A stretch of DNA of 64,000 bases from Frondihabitans sucicola. Lineage in GTDB: Bacteria; Actinomycetota; Actinomycetes; Actinomycetales; Microbacteriaceae. The stretch lies in contig NZ_AP027732.1 in NCBI RefSeq assembly GCF_030296615.1, positions 2,545,042-2,609,041 of the forward strand, given 5' to 3'. The position numbers were made by a program, and so were the translations under genes. Under the pieces are notes generated by a model. That model was not told where the DNA came from and did not search any database. It saw only the letters and a program-made list of their open reading frames with translations. This document shows positions 7,748 through 25,116 of the stretch, piece by piece (position 1 is the first letter of the stretch; each line of letters opens with the position of its first letter).

Positions 7748-7833
7748 GGGCTTGATTCATGCAGGCTTGTGGATTTCCTCGCGCTGCCTATTTGAATCTC
7801 TCCCTCATCCCGACACCAAGGCTCGGTCGGCTC

Positions 7834-9832: not shown

Positions 9833-10351
9833 CTAGTTGGTTCCGGTGACGGTGCTGCGGCGTTCGAGGAAGACGTTGTCTCGCCACTGTCCTGCCCACG
9901 GGCCGAAGCTCATCCGCCCAATGCGTTCCCGGATGCCGACCTCTCGGAATCCGTGGGCGGCATGAAGGGCGAGGCTTCCGCGGTTCTCGGGGAAGACCGC
10001 GGATTGAATCATCCAGACTCCCGCTGCTTCGGATGTGGTGATGAATTCCGCCAGGAGCAGGTGGCCAACCCCGGCACCGCGGGCGTTCTTGGAGACATAG
10101 ATGGAGTGCTCGATGACCCCCTGATACACCGGCCGCGACGACACGCTCGACGCGGCCGCCCACCCGACGACGTTGTCCTGCGTGTCCACGGCGACGAGTC
10201 GGAGTCCTCGAATTTTTCCGCCATCGAACTCCTCCCAGGACGGAGGCTTGTCCTGGAAGGTCGCGTTACCCGACGCGATGCCCTCGGCGTAAATCCGTTC
10301 GACGGCAGGCCAGTCGCCCGCCTTCATCGCACGGATCGTCACCTCGGTCAT
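9833..10351 (-). CDS. GNAT family N-acetyltransferase (phosphinothricin acetyltransferase-like)
   Basis: MTEVTIRAMKAGDWPAVERIYAEGIASGNATFQ...RGAGVGHLLL; ATG 10349-10351. Confidence 0.8.
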   Translation of the reverse strand: MTEVTIRAMKAGDWPAVERIYAEGIASGNATFQDKPPSWEEFDGGKIRGLRLVAVDTQDNVVGWAAASSVSSRPVYQGVIEHSIYVSKNARGAGVGHLLLAEFITTSEAAGVWMIQSAVFPENRGSLALHAAHGFREVGIRERIGRMSFGPWAGQWRDNVFLERRSTVTGTN

Positions 10352-10697
10352 GCCGGGTTGAGGGTCCGACTGCTGGCGGTGAGGGCGGCGAAGTCGGCAC
10401 GGTAGTACGCCCATTTGCCGCGCTGTTCGCGGATGGCAAGGCCGGCGTCGACGAGCTGCTTCATGTGATGCGACACCGTGGGCTGCGACAGCCCGACCGG
10501 TGCCGTGAGGTCACAGATGCAGGCTTCCCCGTAGGGCTTGCCGCGATGAGTGACAGGAGCCGCACTCGGGTGGGATCGCCGAGCGCCTTGAACACCTTGG
10601 CGACGTCTTCCGCTGCGGACGCCGTGAGGGCGTCCTCACTGGTCGGGGCGCAGCACGCCGCGTCGGTGGGCGCGAGAAGCGAGGCACTGGTGGTCAT
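10348..10697 (-). CDS. arsR: ArsR/SmtB family metalloregulator (apparent single-base frameshift ~10543)
   Basis: MTTSASLLAPTDAACCAPTSEDALTASAAEDVAKVFKALGDPTRVRLLSLIAA then +1 frame GKPYGEACICDLTAPVGLSQPTVSHHMKQLVDAGLAIREQRGKWAYYRAD; stop overlaps the GNAT start (ATGA). Confidence 0.7.
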
Positions 10698-10721
10698 GGC
10701 CTCATTCTGCCAGTCGCATTG

Positions 10722-10760
10722 ACATCTGTCGATGTATCGAGCACAGTCGATGTATTGATT
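10722..10760. promoter_or_regulatory. repeated 12-13 bp near-palindromes (GTCGATGTATCGA / GTCGATGTATTGA) in the divergent arsR / arsO promoter region; candidate ArsR operator
   Basis: seen directly between starts at 10697 (-) and 10785 (+). Confidence 0.4.
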
Positions 10761-10784
10761 GTTGTCGATCCGAGGAGTTTTCCC

Positions 10785-12101
10785 GTGTCTGATCTTCCCG
10801 TTGTCGTCATCGGCGCCGGCCCGCAGGGCCTTGCCGCTGCCGCCCACCTTCTCGAACGTGGCCTTGACCCCCTGGTACTCGAAGCTGGCGACGGCCCGGC
10901 GGCCGCTGTGAATGAGTGGGGCCACGTCCGGCTGTTTTCGGACTGGTCAGAACTCGTCGACACCACGGCCGGCCGGCTGCTTGAAGGAACCGGATGGACG
11001 GCTCCGGCGAAGGGCTACCCGACCGGAGCGCAGTGGATCAGCCGCTACCTCTCGCCTCTCGCTGAGGCGTTGGGTGACCGGGTGCGGTACGGCACCACCG
11101 TGACTGGTATCGGTCGGCAGGGCCGTGACCGGCTGGTGGATGCGGGCCGAAGCGAGCAGCCCTTCACCGTTCACGTCAACGCCGGCGGGACCGAGGAACG
11201 CATCACCGCTCGTGCTGTCATCGACGCGTCGGGAACCTGGTCGACCCCGAACCCGCTGGGCGCCGACGGTCTCCCCGCCCTCGGCGAGAAGGCAGCGGCC
11301 GCGTTCATCTCCGATCGCATCCCTGACTTCCACGACCATGACCGGTTCGCCGGCAAACACACGGTCGTCGTGGGCAGTGGGCACTCCGCGGCGACCGCGA
11401 TCAACGAACTCACCCGCGTCGCCAAACAGCACCCCGATACCCGCATCACATGGGTCCTTCGTCGAGGTGGCGTTGGGAACACATTCGGTGGCGGCACGGC
11501 CGACGAGCTGCCCGAGCGCGGAGCCCTCGGCGCTCGTGCGCAGAAGTCCGTCGAGGCGGGGATCGTGGATCTCGTCACCGGGTTCCGCGTCGAACGAATC
11601 AACACCACCGACACCGGCGCCGTCCTCATCTCCGAAGACGGACGCGCCCTGCCCGAGGCAGACCTCGTCGTCGCCCTGACCGGGTTCCGACCCGACCTGT
11701 CGTTCCTGTCGGAGGTGCGCCTCGAGCTGGATGCCACGTTGCAGGCACCCATCCGAATCGCGGCGGAGGTCGACCCCAACGTACATAGCTGCGGGTCCGT
11801 CCGAGCCACCGGAGCTGCGGACCTGGCACAACCGGAACAGGATTTCTACCTCGTCGGCGCGAAGTCCTACGGCCGCGCGCCCACGTTCCTGGCGATGACC
11901 GGATACGAGCAGATCCGCAGCGTCGTCGCGGAACTGGCCGGCGACCACGAGGCCGCCGCCCGCATCGACCTCATCCTCCCTGACACCGGCGTGTGTGGCG
12001 GGGCAGGGTTGTTCGACGACCCCACCGGCGCCAGAGGCGGCGCCTGCTGCGCCCCTGCATCGACACTTCTGCAGATCGGCCGTGCCCCCGTCACCGCTTG
12101 A
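10785..12101 (+). CDS. FAD/NAD(P)-binding oxidoreductase (ArsO-like flavin monooxygenase family found in actinobacterial ars clusters)
   Basis: GTG start 8 nt after a GAGGAG RBS; VVVIGAGPQGLAAAAHLLERG dinucleotide-binding motif, second GxGxxA (VVVGSGHSAATAI). Confidence 0.65.
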   Translation: MSDLPVVVIGAGPQGLAAAAHLLERGLDPLVLEAGDGPAAAVNEWGHVRLFSDWSELVDTTAGRLLEGTGWTAPAKGYPTGAQWISRYLSPLAEALGDRVRYGTTVTGIGRQGRDRLVDAGRSEQPFTVHVNAGGTEERITARAVIDASGTWSTPNPLGADGLPALGEKAAAAFISDRIPDFHDHDRFAGKHTVVVGSGHSAATAINELTRVAKQHPDTRITWVLRRGGVGNTFGGGTADELPERGALGARAQKSVEAGIVDLVTGFRVERINTTDTGAVLISEDGRALPEADLVVALTGFRPDLSFLSEVRLELDATLQAPIRIAAEVDPNVHSCGSVRATGAADLAQPEQDFYLVGAKSYGRAPTFLAMTGYEQIRSVVAELAGDHEAAARIDLILPDTGVCGGAGLFDDPTGARGGACCAPASTLLQIGRAPVTA

Positions 12102-12116
12102 GCGAACCAGTCGCCG

Positions 12117-12791
12117 CTAGGCGGGGGCGAGACGGGGCGCAAGTTCCTGGATGCGGTGTTCGAGGTCCGTGAAAGCGGCCTCGAATGCCGCATCCGTGCC
12201 CAGACGGACAGGGTCGGGGATCGACCAGTGCAGCCCGGACGGGACGGAGAGTTCCTCATGGGCGTTGTCGCAGACCGTGACCACGAAGTCATCCGGCGCG
12301 AGAACGTCAGAGAGCATTTGCGGGGTGGCCTCTTGCAGGTTCAGGTGGTGCCGCTTCGCTGCCCGGATAGCGCCCGGTTCGACGCGCTCGGCGGGGTGAG
12401 TTCCCCCGGATGCGGCAGGGATACTGCTGGCGCTGGCCCACAGCGCTGCGGCGAGCTGTGACCGGGCGGAGTTCCCGGTGCAAACGAACACAACCCGGTG
12501 GCCGGCGACCGAGGATGTCGGAGTCAGCCCCGACAAGGAACCTGGGGCGAGGTGGAGATAGCTGCGCCTGCGGTCGCCCTCTGACCGGACCCGAACCAGA
12601 ATGCCCACGCCTTCCAGCACCTTCAGGTGATGCGCCACGAGGTTCGAGGGCATGCCGAGCTGCTGGCTCATGTCGGTCGGGGAGACATCCCCAAGGGTTA
12701 ACAGGTCGACGATCCGTAGGCGTGCCGGATCGGCCAGGGCGGCATGTTTCGCAGCCCGCGCCTCGATCATCTCTGTTAGCTCAGCGTTCAT
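12117..12791 (-). CDS. arsC: ArsR HTH fused to LMW-PTP-type arsenate reductase (ArsR-ArsC fusion)
   Basis: N-terminus RLRIVDLLTLGDVSPTDMSQQLGMPSNLVAHHLKVLEGVGIL (ArsR HTH); C-terminus VVFVCTGNSARSQLAAALW (CX5R P-loop of LMW phosphatase/ArsC). Confidence 0.8.
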   Translation of the reverse strand: MNAELTEMIEARAAKHAALADPARLRIVDLLTLGDVSPTDMSQQLGMPSNLVAHHLKVLEGVGILVRVRSEGDRRRSYLHLAPGSLSGLTPTSSVAGHRVVFVCTGNSARSQLAAALWASASSIPAASGGTHPAERVEPGAIRAAKRHHLNLQEATPQMLSDVLAPDDFVVTVCDNAHEELSVPSGLHWSIPDPVRLGTDAAFEAAFTDLEHRIQELAPRLAPA

Positions 12792-12831
12792 TACCTCAAT
12801 CTTGACTGAGGTACCGTCTTGGCGTCAAGAT

Positions 12832-13587
12832 GTGCAAGTGCCCTTCTTGACCCCGATCCCACGCACCGATCTCCTGCGCCGCCTGCTGGCGGAGCTGCTC
12901 GGGACGGCTCTTCTGGTGACGGTCGTTGTCGGTTCGGGGATCATGGCCCAGCAGCTCAGCCCGCGCGACGTCGGGCTGCAACTGCTGGAGAACAGCCTCG
13001 CTACCGCTTTCGGCCTGACGGTTCTGATCCTGATGCTCGGTCCGATCTCGGGGGCGCACTTCAACCCGGTGGTCACGCTGGCGGACTGGGCTCTTGGCCG
13101 TCGCACCCGCACCGGGCTCCGTTCAGCGATGGTCCTTCCCTACGTTGTCGCGCAGGTCGTTGGGGCGATCCTCGGAGCAGTCCTGGCGAACACCATGTTC
13201 GACACCCGCACGACCATCGCAACCACGCACCGCGCCACTGGCGGGCATCTCCTCGGGGAGATCGTCGCCACGGCAGGGCTGATCCTGGTGATCTTTGCCC
13301 TCGCACGCACCGGCCGCGGGGCCCTGGCTGCTCCTGCGGTCGGGGCGTACATCGGGGCGGCGTATTGGTTCACCAGCTCGACTTCGTTCGCGAACCCTGC
13401 CGTGACCATCGGCCGGATCTTCACCGACACCTTCGCCGGCATCGCCCCCACCTCCGCCCCCGCCTTCATCGGCGTCCAGCTGGTGGGAGCCGCGGTCGGC
13501 TGTGCCCTGCTTCTCGTTCTCTATCCCGACGTCGCCCGGTCCGCCGACGACGTCGTCATCCCGCACCTCGACCAGGCGTCCGCCTGA
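12832..13587 (+). CDS. aquaporin/aquaglyceroporin (MIP family) arsenite channel
   Basis: two NPA boxes (SGAHFNPVVT and SFANPAVT); six TM helices; GTG start after the divergent arsRC start. Confidence 0.8.
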   Translation: MQVPFLTPIPRTDLLRRLLAELLGTALLVTVVVGSGIMAQQLSPRDVGLQLLENSLATAFGLTVLILMLGPISGAHFNPVVTLADWALGRRTRTGLRSAMVLPYVVAQVVGAILGAVLANTMFDTRTTIATTHRATGGHLLGEIVATAGLILVIFALARTGRGALAAPAVGAYIGAAYWFTSSTSFANPAVTIGRIFTDTFAGIAPTSAPAFIGVQLVGAAVGCALLLVLYPDVARSADDVVIPHLDQASA

Positions 13588-13608
13588 CCCGCCCCGAAAG
13601 GCCCTCTC

Positions 13609-14991
13609 ATGCATCTCGTTGCCATCGGCGGATCGGACGCCGGCATCTCCGCCGCCCTCCGCGCCCGCGAACTCGACCCGTCCGTAGACGTGACCGTGGT
13701 CGTCGCGGACGCTTACCCGAACTTCTCCATCTGCGGGATTCCGTACTTCTTCTCCCGCGAAGTGCAGCCCTGGCAGTCCCTCGCTCACCGCACCCATGCC
13801 GACCTCGAAGCGACCGGGATGAACCTCCGGTTGGAGACGTTCGCGACGTCGATCGACGTCGTAGGTCACCGCCTCGCCGTCCGCGCCCTCGACGGCACCG
13901 GATCCCTCATCGCCTACGACGCCCTCATGGTCGGCACCGGGGCGCTGCCCTCCCGCGCCGGCATCGACGGCCTCGACATCCTGGGGCCGGACGACGGGGT
14001 GCACGTCATCCACTCCATGGGCGACACCTTCGCCCTCGACCGGTTCCTCGAGACCCGGAACCCTGAGACCGCGATCATCGTCGGCGCCGGCTACGTGGGC
14101 CTTGAAATGGCGGAAGCGTTCACCGTCCGCGGCATCAAGACGACCCAGATTCAGCGCGGTCCGGAAGTGCTCTCCACCCTCGACCCCGAACTCGGCGCCC
14201 TCGTTCACACTGAACTCACCGACCACGGCGTCACCGTCCTCACGGACACCATCGTGAACCGCATCGACAAAACCGGCGACAGCCTCACCGTCAGCGCCAC
14301 CCACCAGGGCACCCCCGTCACCCACACGGCCGACGTTGTCCTGGTTGTCGTCGGGGTCCGCCCGAACACGGACCTCCTCGAGCGCGCCGGCGCGACGCTT
14401 GGTGCTGGCCGGGCGGTCGTCGTCGACGACACGATGCGGACGGGTCTTCCCGACGTGTTCGCGGCCGGTGACGGGGTCACCACCCACCACCGCCTCCTCG
14501 GCTTGACGTATCTCCCTCTCGGGACGACGGCTCACAAGCAGGGCCGCGTCGCCGGCGAGAACGCCCTCGGTGGCACCGCCCGGTTCGCGGGATCCGTCGG
14601 CACTCAGGTCGTGAAAGTGTTCGACCTCGTCGCCTCCCGGACCGGCCTTCGCGAACACGAAGCCGCCGCTGCCGGGTTCGCCCCCGTCAGCACGACCGCG
14701 ATCGCGGATGACCACAAGAAGTACTACCCGGGCGCGCAACCGATCTCGATCCGCGTCACCGGCGACAGCCGCGACGGCAAACTCCTCGGCGCTCAGCTCG
14801 TCGGCCGTCTTGGCACCGAGACCGCCAAACGCGTCGACACGTACGCCGTCGCCTTGCACGCCGGCCTCACCGTGGAGCAGGTCAGCGAACTCGACCTCTC
14901 CTACACACCACCGCTCGGTTCCCCGTGGGACGCGGTGCAGATCGCCACCCAGGCATGGTCCCGCGAGCACCGCCAGGCGGTGACCGCATGA
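13609..14991 (+). CDS. FAD-dependent pyridine nucleotide-disulfide oxidoreductase (NADH oxidase / CoA-disulfide reductase-like)
   Basis: MHLVAIGGSDAGISAAL...IIVGAGYVGLEMAEAF...AAGDGV; 460 aa two-Rossmann architecture. Confidence 0.75.
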   Translation: MHLVAIGGSDAGISAALRARELDPSVDVTVVVADAYPNFSICGIPYFFSREVQPWQSLAHRTHADLEATGMNLRLETFATSIDVVGHRLAVRALDGTGSLIAYDALMVGTGALPSRAGIDGLDILGPDDGVHVIHSMGDTFALDRFLETRNPETAIIVGAGYVGLEMAEAFTVRGIKTTQIQRGPEVLSTLDPELGALVHTELTDHGVTVLTDTIVNRIDKTGDSLTVSATHQGTPVTHTADVVLVVVGVRPNTDLLERAGATLGAGRAVVVDDTMRTGLPDVFAAGDGVTTHHRLLGLTYLPLGTTAHKQGRVAGENALGGTARFAGSVGTQVVKVFDLVASRTGLREHEAAAAGFAPVSTTAIADDHKKYYPGAQPISIRVTGDSRDGKLLGAQLVGRLGTETAKRVDTYAVALHAGLTVEQVSELDLSYTPPLGSPWDAVQIATQAWSREHRQAVTA

Positions 14992-15380
14992 CCGACAAGC
15001 CCACCGTCTTGTTCATCTGCCAGCACAACGCCGGCCGCTCCCAACTCGGCGCAGCCCTCCTCGAACACCTCGCCGGAAACGACTACACGGTCACCTCAGC
15101 GGGGATCGCGCCCGACAAGACAGTGAACCCGGCCGTCGCGGCGAGTATCGCGGAGCTGGGGATGGACATCAGCCAGCGGGAACCGCGGGCCGTCACCGTC
15201 ACCGACCTCCAAGAGGCCGACGTCGTCGTCCTCATGAAGCCTGGCCTAGTCTTGCCGAGCACGCCCGCGGGACGGGTGTTGGAGTGGTCCTTCCCGAATC
15301 CGGAGAACTGGGACGTGGACTCCGTCCGGCCCTTGAGGGAAGCGGTCGCGGCGCGCATCACCTCCGACCTGTTCGCCTGA
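14988..15380 (+). CDS. arsC: arsenate reductase, LMW protein-tyrosine-phosphatase family
   Basis: MTDKPTVLFICQHNAGRSQLGAALLE (CX5R); ATGA overlap with the upstream gene. Confidence 0.8.
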   Translation: MTDKPTVLFICQHNAGRSQLGAALLEHLAGNDYTVTSAGIAPDKTVNPAVAASIAELGMDISQREPRAVTVTDLQEADVVVLMKPGLVLPSTPAGRVLEWSFPNPENWDVDSVRPLREAVAARITSDLFA

Positions 15381-15400
15381 CGCTATGACCTGGAGGGGAG

Positions 15401-16069
15401 CTAGTCGTCCTCTTCCGCTTCGCGTTCACCGGTCAGCACGGATACGGGAACGGTGCAGCTGTCGCCCTTCCATGCCTCGACGCCTTCTTTGACGGCGAAG
15501 CCGACGACGACGAGGGCTGCGATGGGGTCGGCCCAGGTCCACCCGAACAAGCTGTTGAGCAGGAGCCCGACGAGGACCGCCGCGGACAGGTAGGCGCAGA
15601 TGAGGGTCTGTTTGGAGTCGGCGATCGCGGACGCCGATCCCAGTTCTCGTCCGGTGCGGCGTTCGGCAAGGCTCAGGGCAGGCATGATCAGCAAGCTGAT
15701 GACGGTGAGGACGATGCCGATGGGGCTGTGCTCGGCCTGACGGACGCCTGTTAGCGACAGGGCGGCGTCGATGGTGACGTAGATCGCGAGAGCAAAGAAC
15801 GAAATTGCGATGACGCGGAGGGCGGTCCGCTCCCTGGCCTCGGGATCGCGGGCGGTGAATTGCCAGGCGATTGCCGCGGCGGAGAGGACTTCGACGATGG
15901 AATCTAGGCCGAAGCCGACGAGGGCTGCGGAGGAGGCCATGGTACCGGCGGTGATCGCGACGACCGCCTCGATGGCGTTGTAGGTGATGGTCGCCGCGAC
16001 GATCAGCCGTATCCGGCGGCGTAAGATCCGGGTACGAGGCGGGACAGCGAGGGCTTCGGTGCTGGTCAT
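15401..16069 (-). CDS. cation diffusion facilitator-like membrane protein (short form lacking the cytoplasmic domain)
   Basis: TM protein with LVGFGLDSIVEV, ADSKQT, WADPIAALVV motifs typical of the CDF TM core; ATG overlaps the upstream CDF stop. Confidence 0.6.
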   Translation of the reverse strand: MTSTEALAVPPRTRILRRRIRLIVAATITYNAIEAVVAITAGTMASSAALVGFGLDSIVEVLSAAAIAWQFTARDPEARERTALRVIAISFFALAIYVTIDAALSLTGVRQAEHSPIGIVLTVISLLIMPALSLAERRTGRELGSASAIADSKQTLICAYLSAAVLVGLLLNSLFGWTWADPIAALVVVGFAVKEGVEAWKGDSCTVPVSVLTGEREAEEDD

Positions 16070-16998
16070 GCGTGGTCCGTTCCGGGTTCGTGGGCGGTGT
16101 GGCCGGCGGGTTCGAGTTGGAAGGTGCTGTGCTCGACGTCGAAATGGCCGACCAGGCACGCTTGCAGTTCGTCGAGGACTCGGGGTGCGTGGCCGTCCTG
16201 GAAGCACTCGTCCGTCAGGGTCACGTGCGCTGACAGGGCGGGGAGGTCCGAGGTGACGGTCCACGCGTGGAGGTCGTGGATTGCGAGAACGTGGGCGGGT
16301 TCGAGTAGGTGCCCTCGGATGGCGTCAAGGTCCACACCTTCTGGGGTGCCCTCGAGGAGGATGCGGCCGGAGTCTTTCAGCAGCCCCCACGCCGCATGCA
16401 GCATCAAGACCACAACGATCAGGGAGGCGATGGAGTCGGCGCGGGTGAAGCCGGTGACGAGGATGACGATCCCGGCGACGACGGTGGCGATGAACCCATA
16501 CAGGTCGGTGAGGATGTGCTGGAAGGACCCTTCGACGTTCAGGCTCTGACGGTTGGCTTTCGCTAGCACCCACACGGCGACGAGGTTCACGGCCACTCCG
16601 AGGAGCGCGACGACGAGGACCGGGCCGCCTTCGACCTCGGGTGGGTCGAGGAGGCGTCGGATGGCTTCGACGGCGACGATGCCACTGATGACGACGAGGG
16701 TGACGCCATTCACCGCGGCGGAGAGGATCTCGGCGCGCTTCAGCCCGAATGTCCACCTTGAGCTGCTGGGGCGGGCAGCGAGTCGGATCGCGACGAGCGA
16801 CCCGGCGAGGGCGGCGGCGTCGGTGAGCATGTGACCGGCGTCCGAGAGCAGTGCCAGCGAGCCGGAGATGATGGCGACGATGACCTCGATGAGGAGGAAA
16901 CCGACGATCAGGGCCAGGGCGATGCTGAGGAGCCGGGTGTTCGCGTCGGGGGCGGCCCCGTGGCTGTGTGCTTTGTCGTGCTGGTGGGTGTCGGTCAC
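16066..16998 (-). CDS. cation diffusion facilitator (CDF) family metal efflux transporter (CzcD/ZitB-like)
   Basis: His-rich N-terminus THQHDKAHSHG, LLSDAGHMLTDAAALAGSL, C-terminal cytoplasmic domain; GTG start overlaps the regulator stop (GTGA). Confidence 0.8.
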   Translation of the reverse strand: MTDTHQHDKAHSHGAAPDANTRLLSIALALIVGFLLIEVIVAIISGSLALLSDAGHMLTDAAALAGSLVAIRLAARPSSSRWTFGLKRAEILSAAVNGVTLVVISGIVAVEAIRRLLDPPEVEGGPVLVVALLGVAVNLVAVWVLAKANRQSLNVEGSFQHILTDLYGFIATVVAGIVILVTGFTRADSIASLIVVVLMLHAAWGLLKDSGRILLEGTPEGVDLDAIRGHLLEPAHVLAIHDLHAWTVTSDLPALSAHVTLTDECFQDGHAPRVLDELQACLVGHFDVEHSTFQLEPAGHTAHEPGTDHA

Positions 16999-17400
16999 TG
17001 GTCGGTTCCGGTGGTCTCGGGGTGGATCGCGACCGTGTGACCGGTGTGGGTGAGCCCGAGGTCGAGGAGCATCCGGACGTGGCCGTCGTCGAGGCGGTAG
17101 TACGCCATCCGCCCACGACGTGCGACCGACACCACCCGGTGCGCCCGAAGGAGCCGGAGTGCGTGACTGACAGAGCTTTCGCTCATCGCCGTTGTCGCCG
17201 CGAGATCGCACACACATCTCACCGCCTTCGAGAAGAGACATCAGAAGGCGAAGCCGGCCTGGGTCGCCGAGAAGAGAGAACACGTCCGCCAGCTCGACGA
17301 CGTCTTCCGCGTCGGGCAGGCTGCGTCGAACCAGGTCGACCTTGTCCGGGTCGACCATCTTCAGCTCGCAACTATCGATGCTCGCCAGATCGCTCGCCAT
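16995..17400 (-). CDS. ArsR/SmtB family metalloregulator (NmtR/KmtR/CzrA-like) with a 2-bp frameshift inside a (TG)n run at ~17213
   Basis: DVFSLLGDPGRLRLLMSLLEGGEMCV then CDLAATTAMSESSVSHALRLLRAHRVVSVARRGRMAYYRLDDGHVRMLLDLGLTHTGHTVAIHPETTG; restoring TG in ATGTGTGTG(TG)CGAT joins the frames. Confidence 0.7.
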
Positions 17401-17533
17401 GCCGACTCCTCATCTGATCACTTGTTCAGATGACCGTAACAGGCCGACGAGCCCTAGTCACGCAGCCGCCCCTTGCAGGTCAGTCTGAATTCATGTCACA
17501 ATGGTCCTGCGCTTTTAGCGCGTGAAAAACAGC

Positions 17534-17560
17534 CGGCCCTTGGGTCGGTTTTTTTGTGCC
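17534..17560 (+). terminator. intrinsic-terminator-like hairpin plus U7 (CCGGCCC-UUG-GGUCGG-UUUUUUU) with no protein gene upstream on this strand
   Basis: seen directly; 7-bp stem with one G.U pair then T7. Confidence 0.4.
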
Positions 17561-17726
17561 CGAAAACGGTCGCCTCTTTGCGCCATCGGTCAGCACACCC
17601 ACCGCGAGGCCACCGCACCGGCGGCACCTCGCTGTTCTCGCCCGCGAGAAACATCAGCCTCGGACCCGCACGCCGCGAGGTTCGTGAGCCGACCCCTGGG
17701 TCGGCAGCATCAACGGTGGAGGTTCC

Positions 17727-17900
17727 ATGCTCCAGCTGTCGATTGAGATCCCTGCTGCCGCGGGCTACGCAATCGGATTCGCCGTCGCAACAGGCATCAT
17801 CGCGACCGCCATCCGTACCGCGTGGCCCGTGCTGAACGACAAGGCTGCACGCCGCGTCGCTCGCATGCACCGGGCGAAAGCCGCTCGCAAGAGCGACTAG
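17727..17900 (+). CDS. small hydrophobic protein (57 aa), hypothetical
   Basis: GGAGG 6 nt upstream of ATG; MLQLSIEIPAAAGYAIGFAVATGIIATAIRTAWPVLNDKAARRVARMHRAKAARKSD (one TM helix + basic tail); below the ORF-track size cutoff. Confidence 0.35.
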   Translation: MLQLSIEIPAAAGYAIGFAVATGIIATAIRTAWPVLNDKAARRVARMHRAKAARKSD

Positions 17901-18070
17901 CTCAAAAAACGCACCCCTCCATCGTTAAGGAGAGCTCTGTCTTCAGGTGTGCAACAAACGACCGTCCACGAGACAGTCACGCAGAGCTGCTCAAGAGTCG
18001 GCGCGTCATGTCCCATGGCCCGTGTCCGCGACCTATGTTCCGTAAGACACGTTCGAGGTACAGTTCTGCC

Positions 18071-18637
18071 ATGGCATCCGTCGGCTACGCCCGCGTCTCC
18101 ACCCAAGAGCAGAACCTCGACGCACAAACGGACGCCCTCGAGGCGGCCGCCTGCGACAAGGTGTTCGTCGAGCATGCCTCCGGGGTTCTCGCGAAACGGC
18201 CCGCCCTGGATGATGCCCTCGACTACCTCCGCGAAGGCGACACTCTAGTCGTCACGAAACTCGACCGACTCGGCCGCTCCGTCCGGAACCTGAAAGAGAT
18301 CGCTAACGGACTCGAGCGCCGCGGCGTTGGCCTCAGAGCCCTGTCGCAGGGCATCGACACGACCACCCCCGGCGGCCGGCTGTTCTTCCACATGCTCGCG
18401 GCCATTGCGGAGTTCGAGCACGACCTCATCGTCGAACGCACGAAGGACGGTTTAGCTGCCGCCCGAGCCCGCGGCCGAAAAGGCGGCGGGCGTTCAAAGA
18501 TGACCGCCACGAAAGCCAAGCAGGCCCGAGCGATGTACGACGAGAAGACCTATACCGTCCAGCAGATTGCTGACACCTTCGGCGTCTCACGCGGCACCAT
18601 CTACCGGCACCTCGAAGAAGACATCAGCTCCATTTAG
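18071..18637 (+). CDS. serine recombinase (resolvase/invertase, Hin/Gin/Pin family)
   Basis: MASVGYARVSTQEQNLDAQTDALE... catalytic Ser in YARVST; C-terminal HTH YTVQQIADTFGVSRGTIYRHL. Confidence 0.85.
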   Translation: MASVGYARVSTQEQNLDAQTDALEAAACDKVFVEHASGVLAKRPALDDALDYLREGDTLVVTKLDRLGRSVRNLKEIANGLERRGVGLRALSQGIDTTTPGGRLFFHMLAAIAEFEHDLIVERTKDGLAAARARGRKGGGRSKMTATKAKQARAMYDEKTYTVQQIADTFGVSRGTIYRHLEEDISSI

Positions 18638-18715
18638 CCCGAGGACCGCTCCACATCACGAGCGTCCGCGAAGGCCTTAAGTGGGTTCCGCTTGAGTGCC
18701 CTAGTGGGTCCGAGA

Positions 18716-18772
18716 CACTTTGACATAGTCGTCTTTCGCTTCACGTTCACCCGTCAGCACGGACACAGGTCC
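18716..18772 (-). pseudogene. 3'-terminal remnant (~17 codons) of a paralogue of the short CDF gene 15401-16069
   Basis: translates MPLGPVSVLTGEREAKDDY..., matching the ...CTVPVSVLTGEREAEEDD end of 15401-16069; nucleotide similarity to 15404-15460; upstream part replaced by lower-GC DNA. Confidence 0.5.
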
Positions 18773-18864
18773 AAGCGGCATGAAAAACACACATCGAGAG
18801 ACAAGCGGGAACCGGCCAATCGACGTGGCAATCCTGCGGGCTATCCATATCTGGACTTACGACA

Positions 18865-19974
18865 TCAAAACGACCAAGGATCCAGGCGCGTGATGGCGAG
18901 TACGGCGGAGTCATCCGCATTGCCCACGAAGCCTCCACCCACCGATATTTCCCCTTGCCATGCAATTGTCGCGCCGACGCGGCACTTTTCAATTTCCGGA
19001 AGGCGGAGGCGAGTTCTGTCGAAAAGAAGTTCGCCGTCATCGTCGGTCGCCGCTTCGCGGATAGTTCGGTCACCCATGTCGAAGATGAAATTGTGATTCT
19101 CAGTTTGCACGTGCCAGAGACCTTGGTCGTTGTCGCGCAACTCAACGATCTGCTGCCCGATGTGGACGACGTCAGTGATTTCCGAAGGACTTTGACTCAA
19201 GGGAAATAGCTCTCCGACGCCCTGGGCCAAGAATGCAAGGCTGTCAAAGATATCGACCGCAATCATCAACGCGCTGCCGGAGTGAGTCTCGATGCTGATT
19301 TGATCTCCTCGACTGGCAACGTCGGCGACCAGGTCGGTGAATTGGCCAGAAGCGTCGTGGACGGAAATCGATCGTCGCGCAGGGAACTGTCCCGATGGCG
19401 TCACGTCGGCCTCACTCTCCGATGTGAGGGAGCTTCTCTCGTCGAGACGGTAGATCCCCGTGACGGCTGATCTAGAGGATCTCTGCGTCACTTCCCCTAT
19501 CCGGGCAGTAGACCAGGTCGCCACGGCTCCGACGCTGACCTCGACAATGGCGCCGAAGCCTTCACGTCCCATTGGGGTTCCACCACTTCCCGTCCGCTGG
19601 CCATAGAGCTGCCGGGCATCCATGTCGAAGATGAACAACTCGTCAGAGGTTCCGACCTTCCACGTGCCGGAGTCGGAATCGTAGAGATCTGTGATGGAGT
19701 CCCAGCGCGAGGTGTGCATGCCCGCATCGACGCGCTGGATATCGGGCTGGTTGAGAGCGACCAGCTCGGTGACGAGCGGGATCCAGGGTGCGAGATAGCT
19801 GGACGGGAGGAGAACGGCTCCGCCCCATCGTGACGTCGCCAAGATGGGTTCGCATCGGGAGATCACCGACGCGAGCACGCGCTCCAGGCCCTGCTGTATG
19901 TCGACTGCGGGTCTCGTCAGCACAATCGCCTCCCTGTGAGTCGGGAGATGGTCGTCCGCGAACCTCGTTGCCAC
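18865..19974 (-). CDS. hypothetical protein with two internal repeats (hFIFDMxxR motifs)
   Basis: 369 aa; LYDSDSGTWKVGTSDELFIFDMDARQLYG and NDQGLWHVQTENHNFIFDMGDRTIREA; last gene of a translationally coupled operon; low GC. Confidence 0.45.
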   Translation of the reverse strand: MATRFADDHLPTHREAIVLTRPAVDIQQGLERVLASVISRCEPILATSRWGGAVLLPSSYLAPWIPLVTELVALNQPDIQRVDAGMHTSRWDSITDLYDSDSGTWKVGTSDELFIFDMDARQLYGQRTGSGGTPMGREGFGAIVEVSVGAVATWSTARIGEVTQRSSRSAVTGIYRLDERSSLTSESEADVTPSGQFPARRSISVHDASGQFTDLVADVASRGDQISIETHSGSALMIAVDIFDSLAFLAQGVGELFPLSQSPSEITDVVHIGQQIVELRDNDQGLWHVQTENHNFIFDMGDRTIREAATDDDGELLFDRTRLRLPEIEKCRVGATIAWQGEISVGGGFVGNADDSAVLAITRLDPWSF

Positions 19975-19975
19975 C

Positions 19976-20773
19976 TCATCCCCACCTCCAGTGGAGCGTT
20001 TCTAGTTCAAGAACGCCGATATTTCCCGGTCGTTCATCGGGCGCCATGGAATAGACGCGACGGCCGTCTTCGAGGGTTGCTTCGGCTCGGCTGTGGATGT
20101 GGCCGTGGAACAGGATGCCAGGGTGGATGGCATTCCACAGGTCTGTTGTTCGGGAGCGCGAGATGGCGGACGCCCAGAGTCGGTCCGCTGGCCATCTGCC
20201 GGGGTTCCGTCCTTCCTCGATGCCTGCCGTCGCTTCGGTGGCGCCGTTGACGGCCTCGTGAGTGAGCATGATGTCTGCCGGGCCCGATAGAGCGGCCTCC
20301 GCGTACGCTTCTTTGCGGGCGACCTCGTCTGGCCACCAATCGCGGTTTTTTCCGTGAGCATTTCGCCGGTGCCGATCTACCGACGCCGCTCCCCCGAACG
20401 ACATGAACGTGCGCCCTCCGATCACGAAACGGTATCCGTGTGGCAGGACCCAGATGTGCTGACCGATCCGAACGGGCTCTCGTCGCACCCATGCAGGTGT
20501 GCTTCTAAGGCGGCCATAGTCTTCATGGTTTCCGGGGGTAATGAGAACTTGCTCGATCCCATTGCCGCGGCACCGGGCGTCGACCATGTTCACGAAAGCC
20601 TTGGCGACGCGACCTCGCCCGATGTTGAAATCGCCCAATTGCAAGATCGTCTTCGCCCCTGGCGCCATCTGTGCGGCGCGAGGGATGACCTTCATGGCCC
20701 AGATGATGTTGCTGTGCCAATCTCCCGCCACGACCACGCGCGGATCCGCCGCGTCGGGAACCCACGCGGTCAT
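19976..20773 (-). CDS. calcineurin-like metallophosphoesterase
   Basis: VVVAGDWHSN, GDFN, ITPGNHE, FHGHIH motifs; stop overlaps the upstream gene. Confidence 0.75.
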   Translation of the reverse strand: MTAWVPDAADPRVVVAGDWHSNIIWAMKVIPRAAQMAPGAKTILQLGDFNIGRGRVAKAFVNMVDARCRGNGIEQVLITPGNHEDYGRLRSTPAWVRREPVRIGQHIWVLPHGYRFVIGGRTFMSFGGAASVDRHRRNAHGKNRDWWPDEVARKEAYAEAALSGPADIMLTHEAVNGATEATAGIEEGRNPGRWPADRLWASAISRSRTTDLWNAIHPGILFHGHIHSRAEATLEDGRRVYSMAPDERPGNIGVLELETLHWRWG

Positions 20774-21432
20774 ACCCCGGATCGATCGGCAATAGTGCGT
20801 TGAAGATCGTTCAATGCATTTAGAACGGGTTGCATGTCGCCTCCACTGCTGAGCCAACCGACGGGAGTGGCCGCCGCATGTCGGCGCAGCGTGGGTTGAG
20901 CGTCGTACATGAAGTCGCCGAGGTCATGGATTCGTTTGGCGTCTTCAAGATCGTGCAGGCCCTGGAGGCTGTTGAGCAGGCCGGTATGGGTCGAAGAGTC
21001 GATTTGCCAGGCGGGAATGAGCACGAGGTTTCCCACAAAGAATGCTGACAAAAGGCCACTGGCCAGCCACGCATCGACCTGTTGAAGAGGGATGTTTAGG
21101 TATGAGGCGAGGCTTTGCGGGACGAACGCGGACGCGATGTTGAGAATGAGGCTTCCCGCCAGCTCTACATGAAGTTGCCCACTCCGGGCGGCTTCCTCAG
21201 CGTCCGAGAGTTGCGTGCTCGTGACAATCCCGGAGTCCACGAGGAAAGAACGAACGTCCTCGGTGAGCATCGACGCGCCCGGACCAGGCGCGCTCCTAAG
21301 GGCACTATTGACCGCCGCCCATCCCGTTTCGGAGTCGACGTCCCCCGAGTGCAGGAGGGCGTGCAGCCCCTGAGAGTCTCGTCGGAGGGACGCGTCCGCT
21401 TCCAGGCGAGCCTCAGTAGGTCGGTCAGTCAC
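20770..21432 (-). CDS. hypothetical protein with two predicted TM helices
   Basis: 221 aa; GTG start overlapping the stop of 21425-21976; hydrophobic stretch LAGSLILNIASAFVPQSLASYLNIPLQQVDAWLASGLLSAFFVGNLVLIPAW. Confidence 0.4.
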   Translation of the reverse strand: MTDRPTEARLEADASLRRDSQGLHALLHSGDVDSETGWAAVNSALRSAPGPGASMLTEDVRSFLVDSGIVTSTQLSDAEEAARSGQLHVELAGSLILNIASAFVPQSLASYLNIPLQQVDAWLASGLLSAFFVGNLVLIPAWQIDSSTHTGLLNSLQGLHDLEDAKRIHDLGDFMYDAQPTLRRHAAATPVGWLSSGGDMQPVLNALNDLQRTIADRSGV

Positions 21433-21976
21433 GAGCGGCCTCAAGGGCGGAGAACAGACTGTCCTCCGCTCCTCCGACGTGGGCCCACTCGATGGCATTT
21501 AGAGCGAGATTCATCTTCAGAGCGCGTTGAGGGGTCGTCATGAATGCGCTCAGGAGTCGCCAGTCCATTCCGTCGGCACTTGAAAGGATTTGTTCCAGGC
21601 CCGGCAGGAGGTCGCGGGGACTCTCCTCTGTGAATTGCCAAAGCGGAACCCGCTGCTCCCCGTCCACGAGGACCGCCAGAAGACGGCCGGCAGCGATCAG
21701 CCCTCTGACCTCGCCTTGGGGAATCGTCAGGAGCGTGGCTGCTCGCGAAACACTGGTCGTCAAGATCGGCTCCCGCGCGTAGCTCGTCGCACAGAAGCTC
21801 TCGGCAGCTTCGGGCAACGGCCAGTCGCCAGACCGTTGCGGCGTCCTCGATGCACGAATAGACCCGCGCACTCCATCGGCGAGTCCCCTGAGAAATCCGG
21901 CCCGCCCGATTGAAAGCGTGTCAGCGAAGGCGAGGACTTGCTGGAAAGAGGCAGATACGAAGACGGCGGAATCCAT
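21425..21976 (-). CDS. excisionase-type (HTH_17/MerR-like) DNA-binding protein with C-terminal domain (possibly Xre/MbcA/ParS antitoxin-like)
   Basis: ATLLTIPQGEVRGLIAAGRLLAVLVDGEQRVPLWQF helix-turn-helix; C-terminal ~80 aa PQRALKMNLALNAIEWAHVGGAEDSLF. Confidence 0.45.
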   Translation of the reverse strand: MDSAVFVSASFQQVLAFADTLSIGRAGFLRGLADGVRGSIRASRTPQRSGDWPLPEAAESFCATSYAREPILTTSVSRAATLLTIPQGEVRGLIAAGRLLAVLVDGEQRVPLWQFTEESPRDLLPGLEQILSSADGMDWRLLSAFMTTPQRALKMNLALNAIEWAHVGGAEDSLFSALEAARD

Positions 21977-22148
21977 GGGACAGCTTTCGAGTGAGGCGAC
22001 CCCAAGCCGGGTCGTCGCGTGGAGCGAGCTGGCCGGTTGACCTGCTCACTTTCCTCTCGTGCTGCGTCCCTCACAGCGGTGTTGCGTCCGAACCTGACGG
22101 AGTGCGCTCCGCCCGGAAAGGATTGAATGTGGCCGGCGCTGACGTCGG

Positions 22149-22847
22149 TCATGCCATGTTCCAAATTTCGAAGAGGCGCTCCGATGAACCCTCCAGGTAG
22201 CGGAGCAGCGTTGCGGCGACCGGTCGAGCGGAACCTCCGCTGAGCAGAAAATCCCGAGGCGACAAGTGATCTTTGCCACGCCGCGGAAGAGTCGGATCAT
22301 CGAGCGTCATGATGGCTCTCGTGAATGCAGCGGGAATTTCCGGAGGTATCGCCGCGACGATCATCTCCATCTGCTGGGTTATGACCTTCGCGCTGCGGCC
22401 ATCGCTTGTAAATTCGAACTGCCACGACGGCAACAGGTACCGATCTGCGGCCCTGATCGCATGGAGCCTGCCCCACTCAATGTCGTCGAGTACGACACGC
22501 GTCGAACACCCCAGCAAGGACGCCACCTCGTTGGGAGTGAGTGACATGCCGACGTCGAGAAACGACATCCTCGCCAAGATCTCTCGGATGTCGTCGGCTT
22601 CTAGGTGACCATTGAGTCGAGATGGCCGCTCTTCCATGGTCAGCCGCTCCAGTAGCAGCAGGTGGTGCGCTTTTTTCAGCCCAAGCGAGTTGACACTGAG
22701 CGCCTCGAGGATCGAGCTGAGGTCGTTGACGGTGTCCACGGGATCGATGCCGAAGGCCTTGAGTGACATTTCTAGACGGCCGGCCGCGCTGGACCACGTA
22801 CGGAGGTCAGATCCCTGAGCCGACTGCGAGCCCGCTGACGATGCCAT
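22149..22847 (-). CDS. excisionase-type HTH protein, paralogous architecture to 21425-21976 (N-terminal extension + HTH + DUF2384-like C-terminus)
   Basis: SLTPNEVASLLGCSTRVVLDDIEWGRLHAIRAADRYLLPSWQF; C-terminal TLDDPTLPRRGKDHLSPRDFLLSGGSARPVAATLLRYLEG. Confidence 0.45.
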   Translation of the reverse strand: MASSAGSQSAQGSDLRTWSSAAGRLEMSLKAFGIDPVDTVNDLSSILEALSVNSLGLKKAHHLLLLERLTMEERPSRLNGHLEADDIREILARMSFLDVGMSLTPNEVASLLGCSTRVVLDDIEWGRLHAIRAADRYLLPSWQFEFTSDGRSAKVITQQMEMIVAAIPPEIPAAFTRAIMTLDDPTLPRRGKDHLSPRDFLLSGGSARPVAATLLRYLEGSSERLFEIWNMA

Positions 22848-22861
22848 GCCATCAAATTAGT

Positions 22862-22877
22862 ACACTTTTGTGTACTG
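22862..22877. promoter_or_regulatory. perfect 16-bp palindrome GTACACTTTTGTGTAC in the divergent promoter region (candidate XRE operator)
   Basis: seen directly, 14 bp downstream of the start of the (-) gene at 22847 and 66 bp upstream of the xre ATG. Confidence 0.5.
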
Positions 22878-22942
22878 TGCCATGGCTAGAGTTGCGGAAG
22901 TCTTGGACGGTGCCAAATTCTGGATCTGAGAACTTCGAGGCC

Positions 22943-23149
22943 ATGCGTTCTGCCCTGGAAAGGCTTCGGCACGAGCGGGGATTTAGCTTCGAGCGTTTGC
23001 GCGACGAATCGGGTGTCTCTCGGACAGCCATTATCAAGTTGGAACAGGGGCGATCCACGGGCAGCCTGAGGACATGGTGCAAAATTTCGAATGCCTTGGG
23101 AGTTCCCTTCTGGCAACTAGCTAAGTACCTGGACGAGCCAATCGGGTGA
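22943..23149 (+). CDS. XRE-family HTH transcriptional regulator (68 aa)
   Basis: MRSALERLRHERGFSFERLRDESGVSRTAIIKLEQGRSTGSLRTWCKISNALGVPFWQLAKYL. Confidence 0.6.
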   Translation: MRSALERLRHERGFSFERLRDESGVSRTAIIKLEQGRSTGSLRTWCKISNALGVPFWQLAKYLDEPIG

Positions 23150-23738
23150 ATGTGAGAAGGCCGTTGCACTTTTGTCAGAAGACGCGCCACCTACCGGATT
23201 GCTTCTTCGAGCGAACCGCGGCATGGGTCACGTGCCGCCTCGATACTGAGCGGGTGACGACTCGTGAAGACCTGCGGCCGCCGTGAGTTCGAATTCCACA
23301 ACTAAGCGCCCGCACCCGTAGTTCGGTCAACATACCTACATCCCTGAGTTCAGCCCTCGGAGTCACCGGGCGCTCGGCCTGAGCATCCCACCTCGGCACG
23401 ATTCTCATGGCTTGGGCGTCGTCATCGGACCCCGGCTGTCGTTGCTCGGACGACGGGAACAAAACTAGGAGCGGCGACCGCCGTTGTCGTTCTAAGTAGT
23501 CGCTGACCTGCGCCTATCTGTCGACAGCGGACCTACTCCGCCTGCTACTCAAAGTCCTCTTCGAATGGTGGTTCATCAATCCCATTGCGGCCCTCGTCCT
23601 CGTCTTCTTCGGCGTCCGCGAAAAAGTCGATGCCCGAAGGACGATGCCTGCGCCACGTTCGTAGGCATGCTCCTACGAAAAGTAAACGTTGACTTCATTC
23701 CTGCCCAAGGTTCTGCTTCCTTAGTCCAAGACTTCCCG

Positions 23739-23797
23739 GCCTGGCTTTTTGTTGTCCTGGTCGTTGAGCGCGACTCCCTGAATTAGATGCAACTCCC
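23739..23797. repeat. right terminal inverted repeat of the element
   Basis: reverse complement matches 4635-4693. Confidence 0.7.
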
Positions 23798-24205
23798 GGC
23801 TCCCGAACAGCGGCTCCTGCCAGTATTTCGGGCGATCCCGAGAGGGGTCGATTGGACGGAACCGGTGGCAAGGCTGCCGACGCTGACGGCCGTCGAAGGC
23901 TTGAGCGCGACTCCGGTGTTCGCCGACGCGGGCGAAGCGCCGGTGATGAGTGCTCCGACGAGCCCGCCGACGACGATGAGAGCGATGGCAATGTAGGGCG
24001 CGGTGCGGGGCCGTGTGTCATCCTGCGAGGAAACACCTCCGGTTCGTCGATTCTGCAGGTTGTAGACGACGGACGCGGCCATCAGCGCCAGACCGATCCC
24101 CCACAGCAGAATTGCAAGCCCCGAAAAGGCTGGGACGAACGACAGTGAAATGGCGCCGAGGGGCAGCACGGCCAAGGCGGCACTGCGTGAACGAATGGAC
24201 TGCAT
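23783..24205 (-). CDS. small membrane protein (3-4 TM); last codons and stop lie inside IR-R
   Basis: AAGGAAGG RBS then ATG; MQSIRSRSAALAVLPLGAISLSFVPAFSGLAILLWGIGLALMAASVV... Confidence 0.5.
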   Translation of the reverse strand: MQSIRSRSAALAVLPLGAISLSFVPAFSGLAILLWGIGLALMAASVVYNLQNRRTGGVSSQDDTRPRTAPYIAIALIVVGGLVGALITGASPASANTGVALKPSTAVSVGSLATGSVQSTPLGIARNTGRSRCSGAGSCI

Positions 24206-24327
24206 CTCTGGACAACCTTCCTTGGTTCCGATCGAGCCGGTCGACTCATTCGAATCCTGGCGTGATTCATCCAGTATGTCACGTGTTTCATGAAGTAATC
24301 CTGGCGACGAATTCGGGACAGGAAGGG

Positions 24328-25116
24328 TCAGGGGGCGACGCTCGAGCGGTGCACGACGCGATCCTGCCCGACACGGATGAGCTCGCCGGCGTCGAGCTCG
24401 CGCCACCGCGGATCGTCGTCGAGACGCTCGCTCGCCACGACGACCGACGCTCCGGCCGCCAGGTCGTTCGACTGAGCCCGCATCGCCGATCCGGCGCCCC
24501 GGAACATCTCGCCTGCGGGCCGCTCCAGCACGAACAGCGAGTTCGTCGACGGATACCGCAGCGCCCACAGCTCGGTCGGCGTGATCAGCACGAAGTTGAG
24601 AGAGACGACCGGCAGCTCGGCGATCACCCACGAGACGGCCGAGGAGATGCCCGCCGCCAGGTCGCCGCCGCACGCGAGAGTCGACGCCGTGATCAGCGCG
24701 AAGAAGCGCTCGCTGTCCGTCTCCCCTGACGGCCCACCGCGACGACGGCGGAAACGACGCCAATCGGGCCTCGAGCGCCGGCAGATCGCCGATGTCGCCG
24801 TTGTGCGCGAAGAGCCGGCCGTCCTGAGAGAACGGGTGGGCGTTCGCCGGTGAGATGCTGCCCTGGCTCGCGTGCCGGACATGGGCGATCATCGTCGTTC
24901 CGCGCAGCCGGTGGGCGGCGCTGGCGAAGTCGGGGTCCGACCAGGCGGGCAGGGCGTCCTTGTCGACGAGCGGGACTCCCCAGGCTGGAACGTGCCGATC
25001 CCGAACCCGTCGGGATTGCGTCGGCTCTGGACGGACAGGCTGTCGGAGGCGTCGACCAACCAGAAGGTGGCGTCGGTGCGTCGATCGCCCGCGTGGAGTC
25101 CGAACAGGCGGCACAT
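24328..25116 (-). CDS. class II glutamine amidotransferase (YafJ/EgtC-like), two apparent single-base frameshifts (~24978 G-run, ~24885)
   Basis: MCRLFGLHAGDRRTDATFWL (N-terminal Cys nucleophile) / ...MIAHVRHASQGSISPANAHPFSQDGRLFAHNGDIGDL / ...SERFFALITAS...LNFVLITPTELWALRYP in three frames. Confidence 0.6.

Follow-up and report, generated by a model that had tools for sequence, protein, structure and literature searches.

The DNA analysed here is a 64,000-nt stretch of Frondihabitans sucicola (contig NZ_AP027732.1, positions 2,545,042 to 2,609,041, forward strand), referred to below as the window; all coordinates are those of the window unless a relative is named. We focused on the region at 18.07-18.77 kb, where a gene for a small serine recombinase is followed, on the minus strand, by a short sequence resembling the 3' end of a CDF transporter gene. 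A preliminary description of this region, made from the letters of the sequence, had interpreted the pair as a rearrangement junction. Our analysis revealed that the region stacks three ordinary mobile-DNA features; each component is of a known kind, and the arrangement is a case of mosaicism and not a new system. The features of the region and its surroundings are as follows.

9832 to 18731, no strand assigned: passenger region and right end of an IS21-type transposon, with a GNAT gene, ars genes, an ArsR-CDFlong-CDFshort operon, orf57, the res-like region and the recombinase gene
15401 to 16069, minus strand: intact short CDF gene, the reference copy (Pfam Cation_efflux), in the passenger region of the transposon
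17947 to 17974, no strand assigned: 28-bp imperfect dyad resembling res site I (TGTG CAACAAACGA|CCGTCCACGAGACA), with conserved centre and right arm
17997 to 18066, no strand assigned: accessory res part, similar to sites II and III, and putative promoter (column conservation of 70-99% in 45 loci)
18071 to 18637, plus strand: gene for a small serine recombinase of 188 aa (Pfam Resolvase and HTH_7), with copies of 73-98% identity in 79 loci
18677 to 18731, plus strand: IS21-family terminal inverted repeat, the right end of the passenger transposon, which aligns with the repeat beside istA in Leaf304
18728 to 18769, minus strand: 3' fragment of a CDF paralogue (CDF'), codons about 208-221, matching positions 201-221 of the family profile hidden Markov model (HMM) across the reconstructed join without gaps
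18770 to 23657, no strand assigned: inverted segment of about 4.9 kb, with orf369, a metallophosphoesterase gene, orf242, orf183, orf232, an XRE regulator gene and the CDF' body
23332 to 23657, plus strand: decayed CDF' body, codons about 96-207, with two stop codons and one frameshift (hmmsearch 9e-16)

The minus strand 3' of the recombinase gene encodes a peptide ending in ...GPVSVLTGEREAKDDYVKVSRTH before a stop codon, in which the CDF-like stretch is PVSVLTGEREAKDD. This stretch matched the C-terminus of the short CDF gene (...PVSVLTGEREAEEDD; in a longer excerpt, ...CTVPVSVLTGEREAEEDD). At the DNA level, the fragment and the 3' end of the short CDF gene at 15407-15448 were identical at 36 of 42 nt in an ungapped alignment, and because searches within the window gave E-values of 4e-8 with blastn and 0.008 with tblastn, the similarity can be regarded as real and beyond chance. 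The proposed homology at both the protein and DNA levels was thus confirmed, and the earlier reservation that the match might be too short or too weak did not hold upon formal alignment. Four of the six differences from the intact gene are synonymous, and the C-terminal motif PVSVLTGERE is near-invariant in the CDF family; the short CDF orthologues in Frondihabitans are 92-95% identical. Two details had to be amended. A stop codon had been placed directly after DDY, but the position that reads TAG in the intact gene reads TAT in the fragment, whose frame continues as ...DDYVKVSRTH into the DNA on the recombinase side before it stops; and instead of about 17 remaining codons, about 13-14 are recognisable. 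The first 3-4 nt of the fragment overlap the transposon terminus. To the right of 18769, the sequence was unrelated and had a lower GC content (0.606, compared with 0.65-0.68 to the left), in agreement with the preliminary description.

The terminal repeat at 18677-18731 lies approximately 40 bp 3' of the recombinase stop codon. It contains two direct repeats of AGTGGGTyCCG about 24 bp apart (AGTGGGTTCCG at 18680 and AGTGGGTCCG at 18704), and a motif search revealed that it aligned with positions 19205-19262 of L083, beside istA in Leaf304; it also aligned with the tails of L001 (F. cladoniiphilus) and L002 (Leaf304). Published IS21 terminal repeats are about 55 bp long, contain two direct repeats, end in 3'-CA and are accompanied by short target duplications (PMC10122671). 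Because the two direct repeats match this architecture and the sequence aligns with the repeat beside istA, we identified 18677-18731 as an IS21-type terminal repeat. A shared tail of about 90 bp in the absence of tniAB was found only in the window, in F. cladoniiphilus (L001, recombinase 98% identical at the amino acid level) and in Leaf304 (L002, 96%), and the three sequences diverge right after ...TTGACATAG(T/C)C(A), that is, after ...CATAG(T/C)C(A). The terminus reads ...CATAGTCA in both L002 and L083 and ...CATAGCCA in L001. When the terminal tail was compared with plasmids by blastn at the sensitive "distant" setting, no match was found.

The organisation of the transposon was most evident in Leaf304, where the left repeat is followed by istA, istB, the GNAT gene, the ars genes, the ArsR-CDFlong-CDFshort operon, orf57, res, the recombinase gene (with nested transposons) and the right repeat. 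The istA product contains Mu-transpos_C_2, and the istB product matched IstB_IS21 with an E-value of 5.8e-61 (Pfam). The istB stop codon lies 13 bp from that of the GNAT gene with no terminal repeat between the two genes, and istB also abuts the GNAT gene in relatives. Both outward termini, beside istA and after the recombinase gene, are followed by CGGCCG, a 6-mer that is palindromic and GC-rich and is therefore somewhat weaker evidence for a target duplication. The simplest reading is that Leaf304 carries a single, 26.8-kb IS21-bounded transposon, predicted from its termini and gene order. This unit occupies about 1,832,560-1,859,354 of contig NZ_LMNV01000002.1 (L083 and L002). F. cladoniiphilus contains istA and istB in a degraded form. 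In the window, 9832-15367 and 15396-17975 are syntenic with L082, L083 and L080 at 86-90% nucleotide identity; this synteny and the terminal repeat shared with relatives indicated that 9832-18731 is inserted transposon DNA. The putative right end of this transposon lies within the final codons of CDF', a resident CDF paralogue that has diverged, so that CDF-like sequence starts where the transposon stops.

The transposon resembles the IS21 family in its terminal repeat, which is about 55 bp long and contains a pair of direct repeats that lie about 24 bp apart, in the CA terminus found in relatives and, in Leaf304, in both the IstA and IstB genes at the other end and the apparent 6-bp duplication around the unit. 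Unlike in a typical IS, istB and the right repeat are separated by about 9-25 kb of passenger genes; the window copy additionally lacks istAB and the left repeat and has G in place of A as its terminal base.

The preliminary description had assumed that the remainder of the second CDF copy was gone. Instead, codons about 96-207 were found on the opposite strand, at 23332-23657. A search of the window with the intact CDF as query matched 23332-23634 (39% identity over short CDF residues 96-199; tblastn E=2e-12), and the two sequences were 68% identical over 155 nt at the DNA level (blastn E=1e-9). Past a +1 frameshift, the body continues as KDDACAT and ends at 23657, and the minus-strand fragment begins with PVSV at 18769. 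We compared both pieces with a CDF family profile HMM built from 121 members. HMM positions 103-201 aligned to 23332-23634, and the joined pieces, KDDACAT followed by PVSVLTGEREAKDD, aligned without a gap to the directly following positions 201-221 (kGdactvpvsaltGereaeed). The two pieces therefore meet between codons 207 and 208, in frame and with neither gap nor overlap, although they lie on opposite strands; the chance of such a fit is about 1 in several hundred. The opposite strands and the exact in-frame join point to a reciprocal inversion of 18770-23657, with breakpoints at 18769/18770 and 23657/23658.

The breakpoints contain no res, hix or tyrosine-recombinase core sites. Tyrosine-recombinase core sites were rejected as the cause of the breaks, as sites resembling the palindrome CCTGCATTAGATGCAGG occur only at 4640, 4772 and 23777. 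A resolvase crossover at the fragment was also rejected; the PVSVLT coding sequence cctgTGTCCGTGctgacg resembles a half-site of res site I and is the only such look-alike in the fragment, but the break lies 16 nt from its centre, outside the half-site. Given the lack of repeats and core sites, and a break outside the half-site look-alike, the inversion would be a product of illegitimate, non-site-specific recombination.

The serine recombinase gene reported in the preliminary description was confirmed as a 188-aa open reading frame (ORF). The N-terminal domain of the protein matched Pfam Resolvase (5.5e-47, residues 4-137), with the nucleophile Ser10 in GYARVSTQEQ, and the C-terminal domain matched HTH_7 (2.3e-9, residues 143-183). 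The recombinase aligned at full length to the structures of Gin and gamma-delta resolvase; the closest solved structure was that of Gin invertase (4m6f, 3e-44), and the gamma-delta/Tn3 resolvases followed at about 1e-25. A scan of one genome per species revealed the 79 loci with related genes, which belong to Microbacteriaceae, Micrococcaceae, Propionibacteriales and other actinobacterial groups. Since a tniA-like gene begins at most 400 bp 3' of the recombinase gene in 49 of these 79 loci, the family appears to serve mainly as the resolvase of tniA-tniB transposons.

The homology of these loci to the window stops at the recombinase stop codon in all but the two closest, and it always takes in 70-115 bp 5' of the recombinase ATG. 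It starts at about 17957 (range 17952-17966) in about 23 loci and at about 17998 in about 35 loci; the former starts fall within or just left of the left arm and centre of the dyad at 17947-17974 (centre, 17960/17961). Upon alignment of the upstream regions of the 79 loci, with a conservation profile over 45 of them, the consensus of this dyad was TGTCyCATGrACGA|CCGTCCATGAGACA. A poorly conserved spacer separates the dyad from the block at 17997-18066, which contains repeated CGTGTC(C/T) half-sites and a second dyad, CGTGTCC...GACACG. The region 17947-18066 matches the layout of a res-like array, with a predicted number of subsites, predicted subsite limits and a putative crossover position. 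Of the two intervals flanking the recombinase gene that had been suggested for a res- or hix-like site, the upstream one thus holds this region, which does not lie in 18638-18720. As judged from what is known of the family, the recombinase would bind the conserved region of about 120 bp 5' of its own gene and resolve cointegrates or multimers; its present activity is a prediction. No known RNA families were found in 17300-19000.

We consider it likely, with a probability of about 0.7, that the end of an IS21-type transposon was placed in a CDF' pseudogene that was later split by an inversion of about 4.9 kb. CDF' would have belonged to the surrounding low-GC element before the transposon landed. 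The order before the inversion would have been the recombinase gene, the terminal repeat, CDF' (convergent with the recombinase gene), the XRE regulator gene and orf232 to orf369, with orf369 pointing to the right end. The inversion would then have cut CDF' between codons 207 and 208, so that 38-42 bp stayed at the transposon end and the remainder of the gene came to lie 4.9 kb away on the opposite strand. A deletion would have removed istAB and the left repeat.

Several observations weigh against this explanation. The window terminus, ...CATAGTCG, ends in CG, whereas the canonical terminus is CA, which suggests that the window copy is probably inactive. Neither istA nor istB was found anywhere in the window by tblastn, and the left terminal repeat is also absent; the window copy is best described as a putative fossil. 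Local alignment of 18700-18900 with 23560-23760 in both orientations revealed no direct or inverted repeat and no microhomology, which leaves the inversion unexplained by repeats. Searches with genes of the right arm did not reveal a relative in which the segment is un-inverted. Misassembly, to which repeat-rich islands are prone, might also have created the apparent inversion or junction; nothing specific points to such an artefact, the joins connect unique sequence and no misleading repeat is present at the breakpoints, and we consider it extremely improbable. Finally, identity to the intact CDF gene is 86% for the fragment but only about 68% for the pseudogene body.

This last difference could instead mean that the two CDF' pieces have separate origins. 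The transposon would then have carried about 38 bp of flanking CDF sequence from an earlier site, the body would be independent and no inversion would have occurred; in keeping with this, CDF genes of the short-CDF family are common in the islands of relatives. Such an origin would leave to chance that the pieces lie on opposite strands and meet exactly at one codon boundary in the profile frame. In addition, IS21-type transposition is not known to take flanking DNA along. The gap between 86% and about 68% was not treated as contradictory to a common origin, because the PVSVLTGERE motif is near-invariant, most of the differences in the fragment are synonymous and the score density on the family HMM is similar for both pieces. 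We therefore regard separate origins as unlikely.

The preliminary description had proposed that insertion or resolvase-mediated recombination imported the segment at 18.8-23.7 kb and deleted most of a second CDF copy. The adjacency of the recombinase gene and the fragment, and the fall in GC content to the right of the fragment, are consistent with this history. Moreover, a rearrangement junction is indeed present at 18.73-18.77 kb, bounded by the transposon terminus on one side and an inversion breakpoint on the other. An insertion was also involved, but the inserted DNA is that on the resolvase side (9832-18731) and not the 18.8-23.7 kb segment. The latter would have been flipped in place, as its partner breakpoint adjoins the CDF' body, and the supposedly deleted part of the gene sits inverted at the far end of this same segment. 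The involvement of the resolvase was likewise not supported: its res-like region lies 5' of the gene, the junction on the recombinase side is an IS21-type terminus, and the breakpoints share no inverted repeat and lack a res-like dyad. An import of this kind is thus very improbable.

A programmed switch, in which the Gin-like recombinase reversibly flips 18770-23657, would resemble the Hin/Gin/Pin systems in that a Gin-like small serine recombinase adjoins an inverted segment; the closest solved relative is Gin invertase, and the segment begins 130 bp from the recombinase gene. However, Hin/Gin systems require that the invertible DNA be flanked by two inverted crossover sites, each of about 26 bp, and no such sites were found at the segment ends when both orientations were aligned. 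The breakpoints fall within a pseudogene and non-coding spacer DNA, the conserved site of the window recombinase is a res-type array 5' of its own gene, and the recombinase is the resolvase of a tniA-tniB transposon in the 49 loci described above. We give this possibility hardly any weight. The transposon end and the later inversion of CDF' thus remain the preferred explanation.

Three further proposals concerning the transposon and its surroundings were considered and dropped. A tni-defective, Tn552-like unit at 15.4-18.7 kb was rejected because inspection revealed no terminal inverted repeats between 15396-15450 and the tail, and a 13-nt inverted repeat (17894-17906 and 18719-18731) was no better than many chance pairs. 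A Tn554-like element in the right flank of L001 had no Pfam support and was withdrawn. The CDF stop codon was not accepted as a recurrent recombination hotspot, as it is natural for the similarity between paralogues to stop at this codon, and no more than 2-3 distinct flanks exist.

The passenger region showed variation of its own. The space that separates arsC from the stop codon of the short CDF gene (15367-15396) is a slot for variable cargo; it measures 28 bp in the window and contains EamA and SBF-type transporter genes in F. cladoniiphilus (L082 10675-12883) and a UPF0060 gene in Leaf304 and L080 (L083 and L080 10671-11124). The gene for the ArsR/SmtB-type regulator of the CDF operon (16995-17400, minus strand) contains a 2-bp deletion relative to L080 and L082 within GAGATGTGTGT(C/T)TGCGA. 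Since this deletion causes a frameshift in the regulator, the two CDF transporters may be expressed without repression. Between the regulator gene and orf57 (17420-17720), we also observed two GC-rich hairpin-forming motifs, AGCCGGCCCTTGGGTCGG at 17531 and AGCCGACCCCTGGGTCGG at 17687, that resemble terminators or repeat elements; the motif at 17531 is followed by a T-run.

The only match to orf369 was an identical protein, annotated as a plasmid-borne hypothetical protein in Frondihabitans sucicola. Plasmid searches with right-arm genes gave no match for orf232 and only matches of at most 36% identity for the phosphoesterase, and exact-protein look-ups returned no record for the window recombinase, the TetR protein, the short CDF or orf369.

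The upstream region of the recombinase gene was found to be a target of other transposons in relatives. In F. cladoniiphilus, the first dyad is separated from the conserved res block by a tnpR-tniA-tniB transposon of 9.8 kb, which carries fluoride-resistance-type cargo; the ends of this transposon are TGTGGAGTT...AACTCCACA, and its target duplication is CCCAGAGCC. In Leaf304, a different tnpR-tniA-tniB transposon lies inside the conserved res block, with the target duplication CCATGG. Tn5053/Tn402 elements, known as res-site hunters, preferentially insert into res sites adjoining a resolvase gene (PMC7765201). In view of this published behaviour, the two independent insertions with target duplications support the identification of the upstream region as res, and res-hunting transposition appears to take place in Actinobacteria. 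The two transposons were located at L001 1-10000 and L082 1-8082 (F. cladoniiphilus) and at L083 1-3240 with L002 1-9943 (Leaf304). Both have ends that start with TGTG and finish with CACA, and one of them carries two crcB genes, an enolase gene, a SLAC1-type channel gene and other genes.

The arrangement in the window is similar but not identical to those of Tn5053/Tn402 (res-tniR) and Tn552 (res-binL). As in these elements, the small serine recombinase gene lies directly 3' of a multi-part site of about 120 bp, and tniA (rve/Mu-type) and tniB (AAA) genes follow in the 49 related loci; as with the targets of res hunters (PMC7765201), related transposons are inserted in the orthologous res of two Frondihabitans genomes. 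In contrast to Tn5053/Tn402, which have the order tniABQ-res-tniR, the order here is res-tnpR-tniA-tniB, no tniQ was seen and the hosts are actinobacterial. The window module also differs from Tn5053/Tn402 and Tn552 in being solitary, without tniAB, and in encoding a protein that is closer to Gin than to gamma-delta resolvase.

All of these features lie inside a larger element of 19.2 kb (4563-23798), which has low-GC arms and 63-bp inverted repeats and encodes a tyrosine recombinase as well as another integrase-like protein; this element thus encloses both the resistance transposon and the inversion. The GC content is 0.69 in the host flanks, 0.59 in 4563-9831, 0.63-0.68 in 9832-18727 and 0.61 in 18770-23657. 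The following features were assigned to the element.

4635 to 4697, plus strand: left 63-bp inverted repeat (63 nt, 90% complementary to the right repeat), with a palindromic core-like site at 4640-4656
4798 to 7747, plus strand: four-gene module encoding a tyrosine recombinase (379 aa), an HTH_26 protein, a Cys-rich 130-aa protein and a second integrase-like protein (360 aa)
23736 to 23798, minus strand: right 63-bp inverted repeat, with a core-like site at 23777-23793

The perfect form of the palindrome noted above lies at 4772-4788, and imperfect copies are present in both 63-bp repeats. A comparison of the inverted-repeat core with metagenome contigs gave no match. Searches of Pfam and NCBIfam with the four-gene module revealed one strong and one weak match to Phage_integrase and a match to HTH_26; the Cys-rich 130-aa protein had none. 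The same module was found in the metagenome contigs L085 (71% identity), L086 (64%) and L087 (44%), in a Microbacterium genome (L038) and in a Frondihabitans metagenome-assembled genome (L090). In L090, a 3.8-kb version has the opposite orientation but is flanked by the same genes as the window element, those for TetR and the DUF7134/HisKA_3 kinase. A sequence of 29-31 nt, ACTTGACATAATGTGCATTATCAGCGCTCA (palindrome ATAATG-TG-CATTAT), is present at 4598-4629 of the window, at 11895-11925 of L088 and at 12229-12257 of L090. It is 100% identical in these three Frondihabitans genomes, whereas the flanking genes are only about 77% identical. In the window and L090 it abuts the recombinase-proximal end of the element, although the orientation of the element is opposite in the two, and in L088 it occurs without an integrase nearby. 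This sequence looks like a target or attachment sequence.

Several other genes at the margins of the element were noted. Just outside the right repeat, homology to GATase_4 (class-II glutamine amidotransferase) at 23783-25114, minus strand, is split over two overlapping frames, and this gene is probably frameshifted. The 3' end of a small membrane-protein ORF extends into the right 63-bp repeat. At 8082-9649, minus strand, a Mrr_cat-like ORF of 142 aa overlaps a 402-aa ORF of unassigned function by 70 nt in another frame; the two may represent one restriction-endonuclease-like gene broken by a frameshift.

Like the Tn554-related elements, RITs, GInts and SEs (strand-biased circularizing integrative elements; PMC10214605), the element has two integrase-like genes and small accessory genes clustered at one end. 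It also shares with multi-tyrosine-recombinase transposons imperfect inverted-repeat termini around a palindromic core, resistance genes and recurrence at the same host locus. It differs from SE, GInt, Tn554 and RIT elements in its gene set (tyrosine recombinase, HTH_26 protein, Cys-rich protein and second tyrosine recombinase), and its mobility is predicted from sequence. The published families are defined by accessory proteins (PMC10214605), and the family-specific proteins Tfp with Srap, GinC with GinD, TnpC and the three RIT recombinases were not identified in the window element. SEs and GInts have been reported only in Proteobacteria (PMC10214605), whereas the host here is an actinobacterium. 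Tentatively, the 19.2-kb element (about 4630-23798) may belong to a family of tyrosine-recombinase transposons from actinobacteria that has so far not been described. This family would be characterised by 63-bp repeats, a palindromic core, the four-gene module, other transposons as cargo and insertion, in both orientations, next to a host sequence of about 30 nt that does not vary (ACTTGACATAATGTGCATTATCAGCGC); we regard this as plausible, though not quite probable. Even if it is correct, the fragment beside the resolvase gene is still an ordinary scar within such an element.

The findings leave the current understanding of the systems involved unchanged, and the enclosing tyrosine-recombinase element is the only part possibly worth separate study, as a pointer to a little-described type of element. 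Their practical value lies in annotation and in the reconstruction of history. They indicate that a gene remnant beside a recombinase gene need not mark the crossover point of that recombinase; here, the remnant has an IS21-type transposon end on one side and an inversion breakpoint on the other, and the res-like site lies across the gene. In addition, they record res-hunting transposition, as it appears, for Actinobacteria and define the limits of a transposon that carries genes for arsenic and CDF metal resistance from one Frondihabitans to another.

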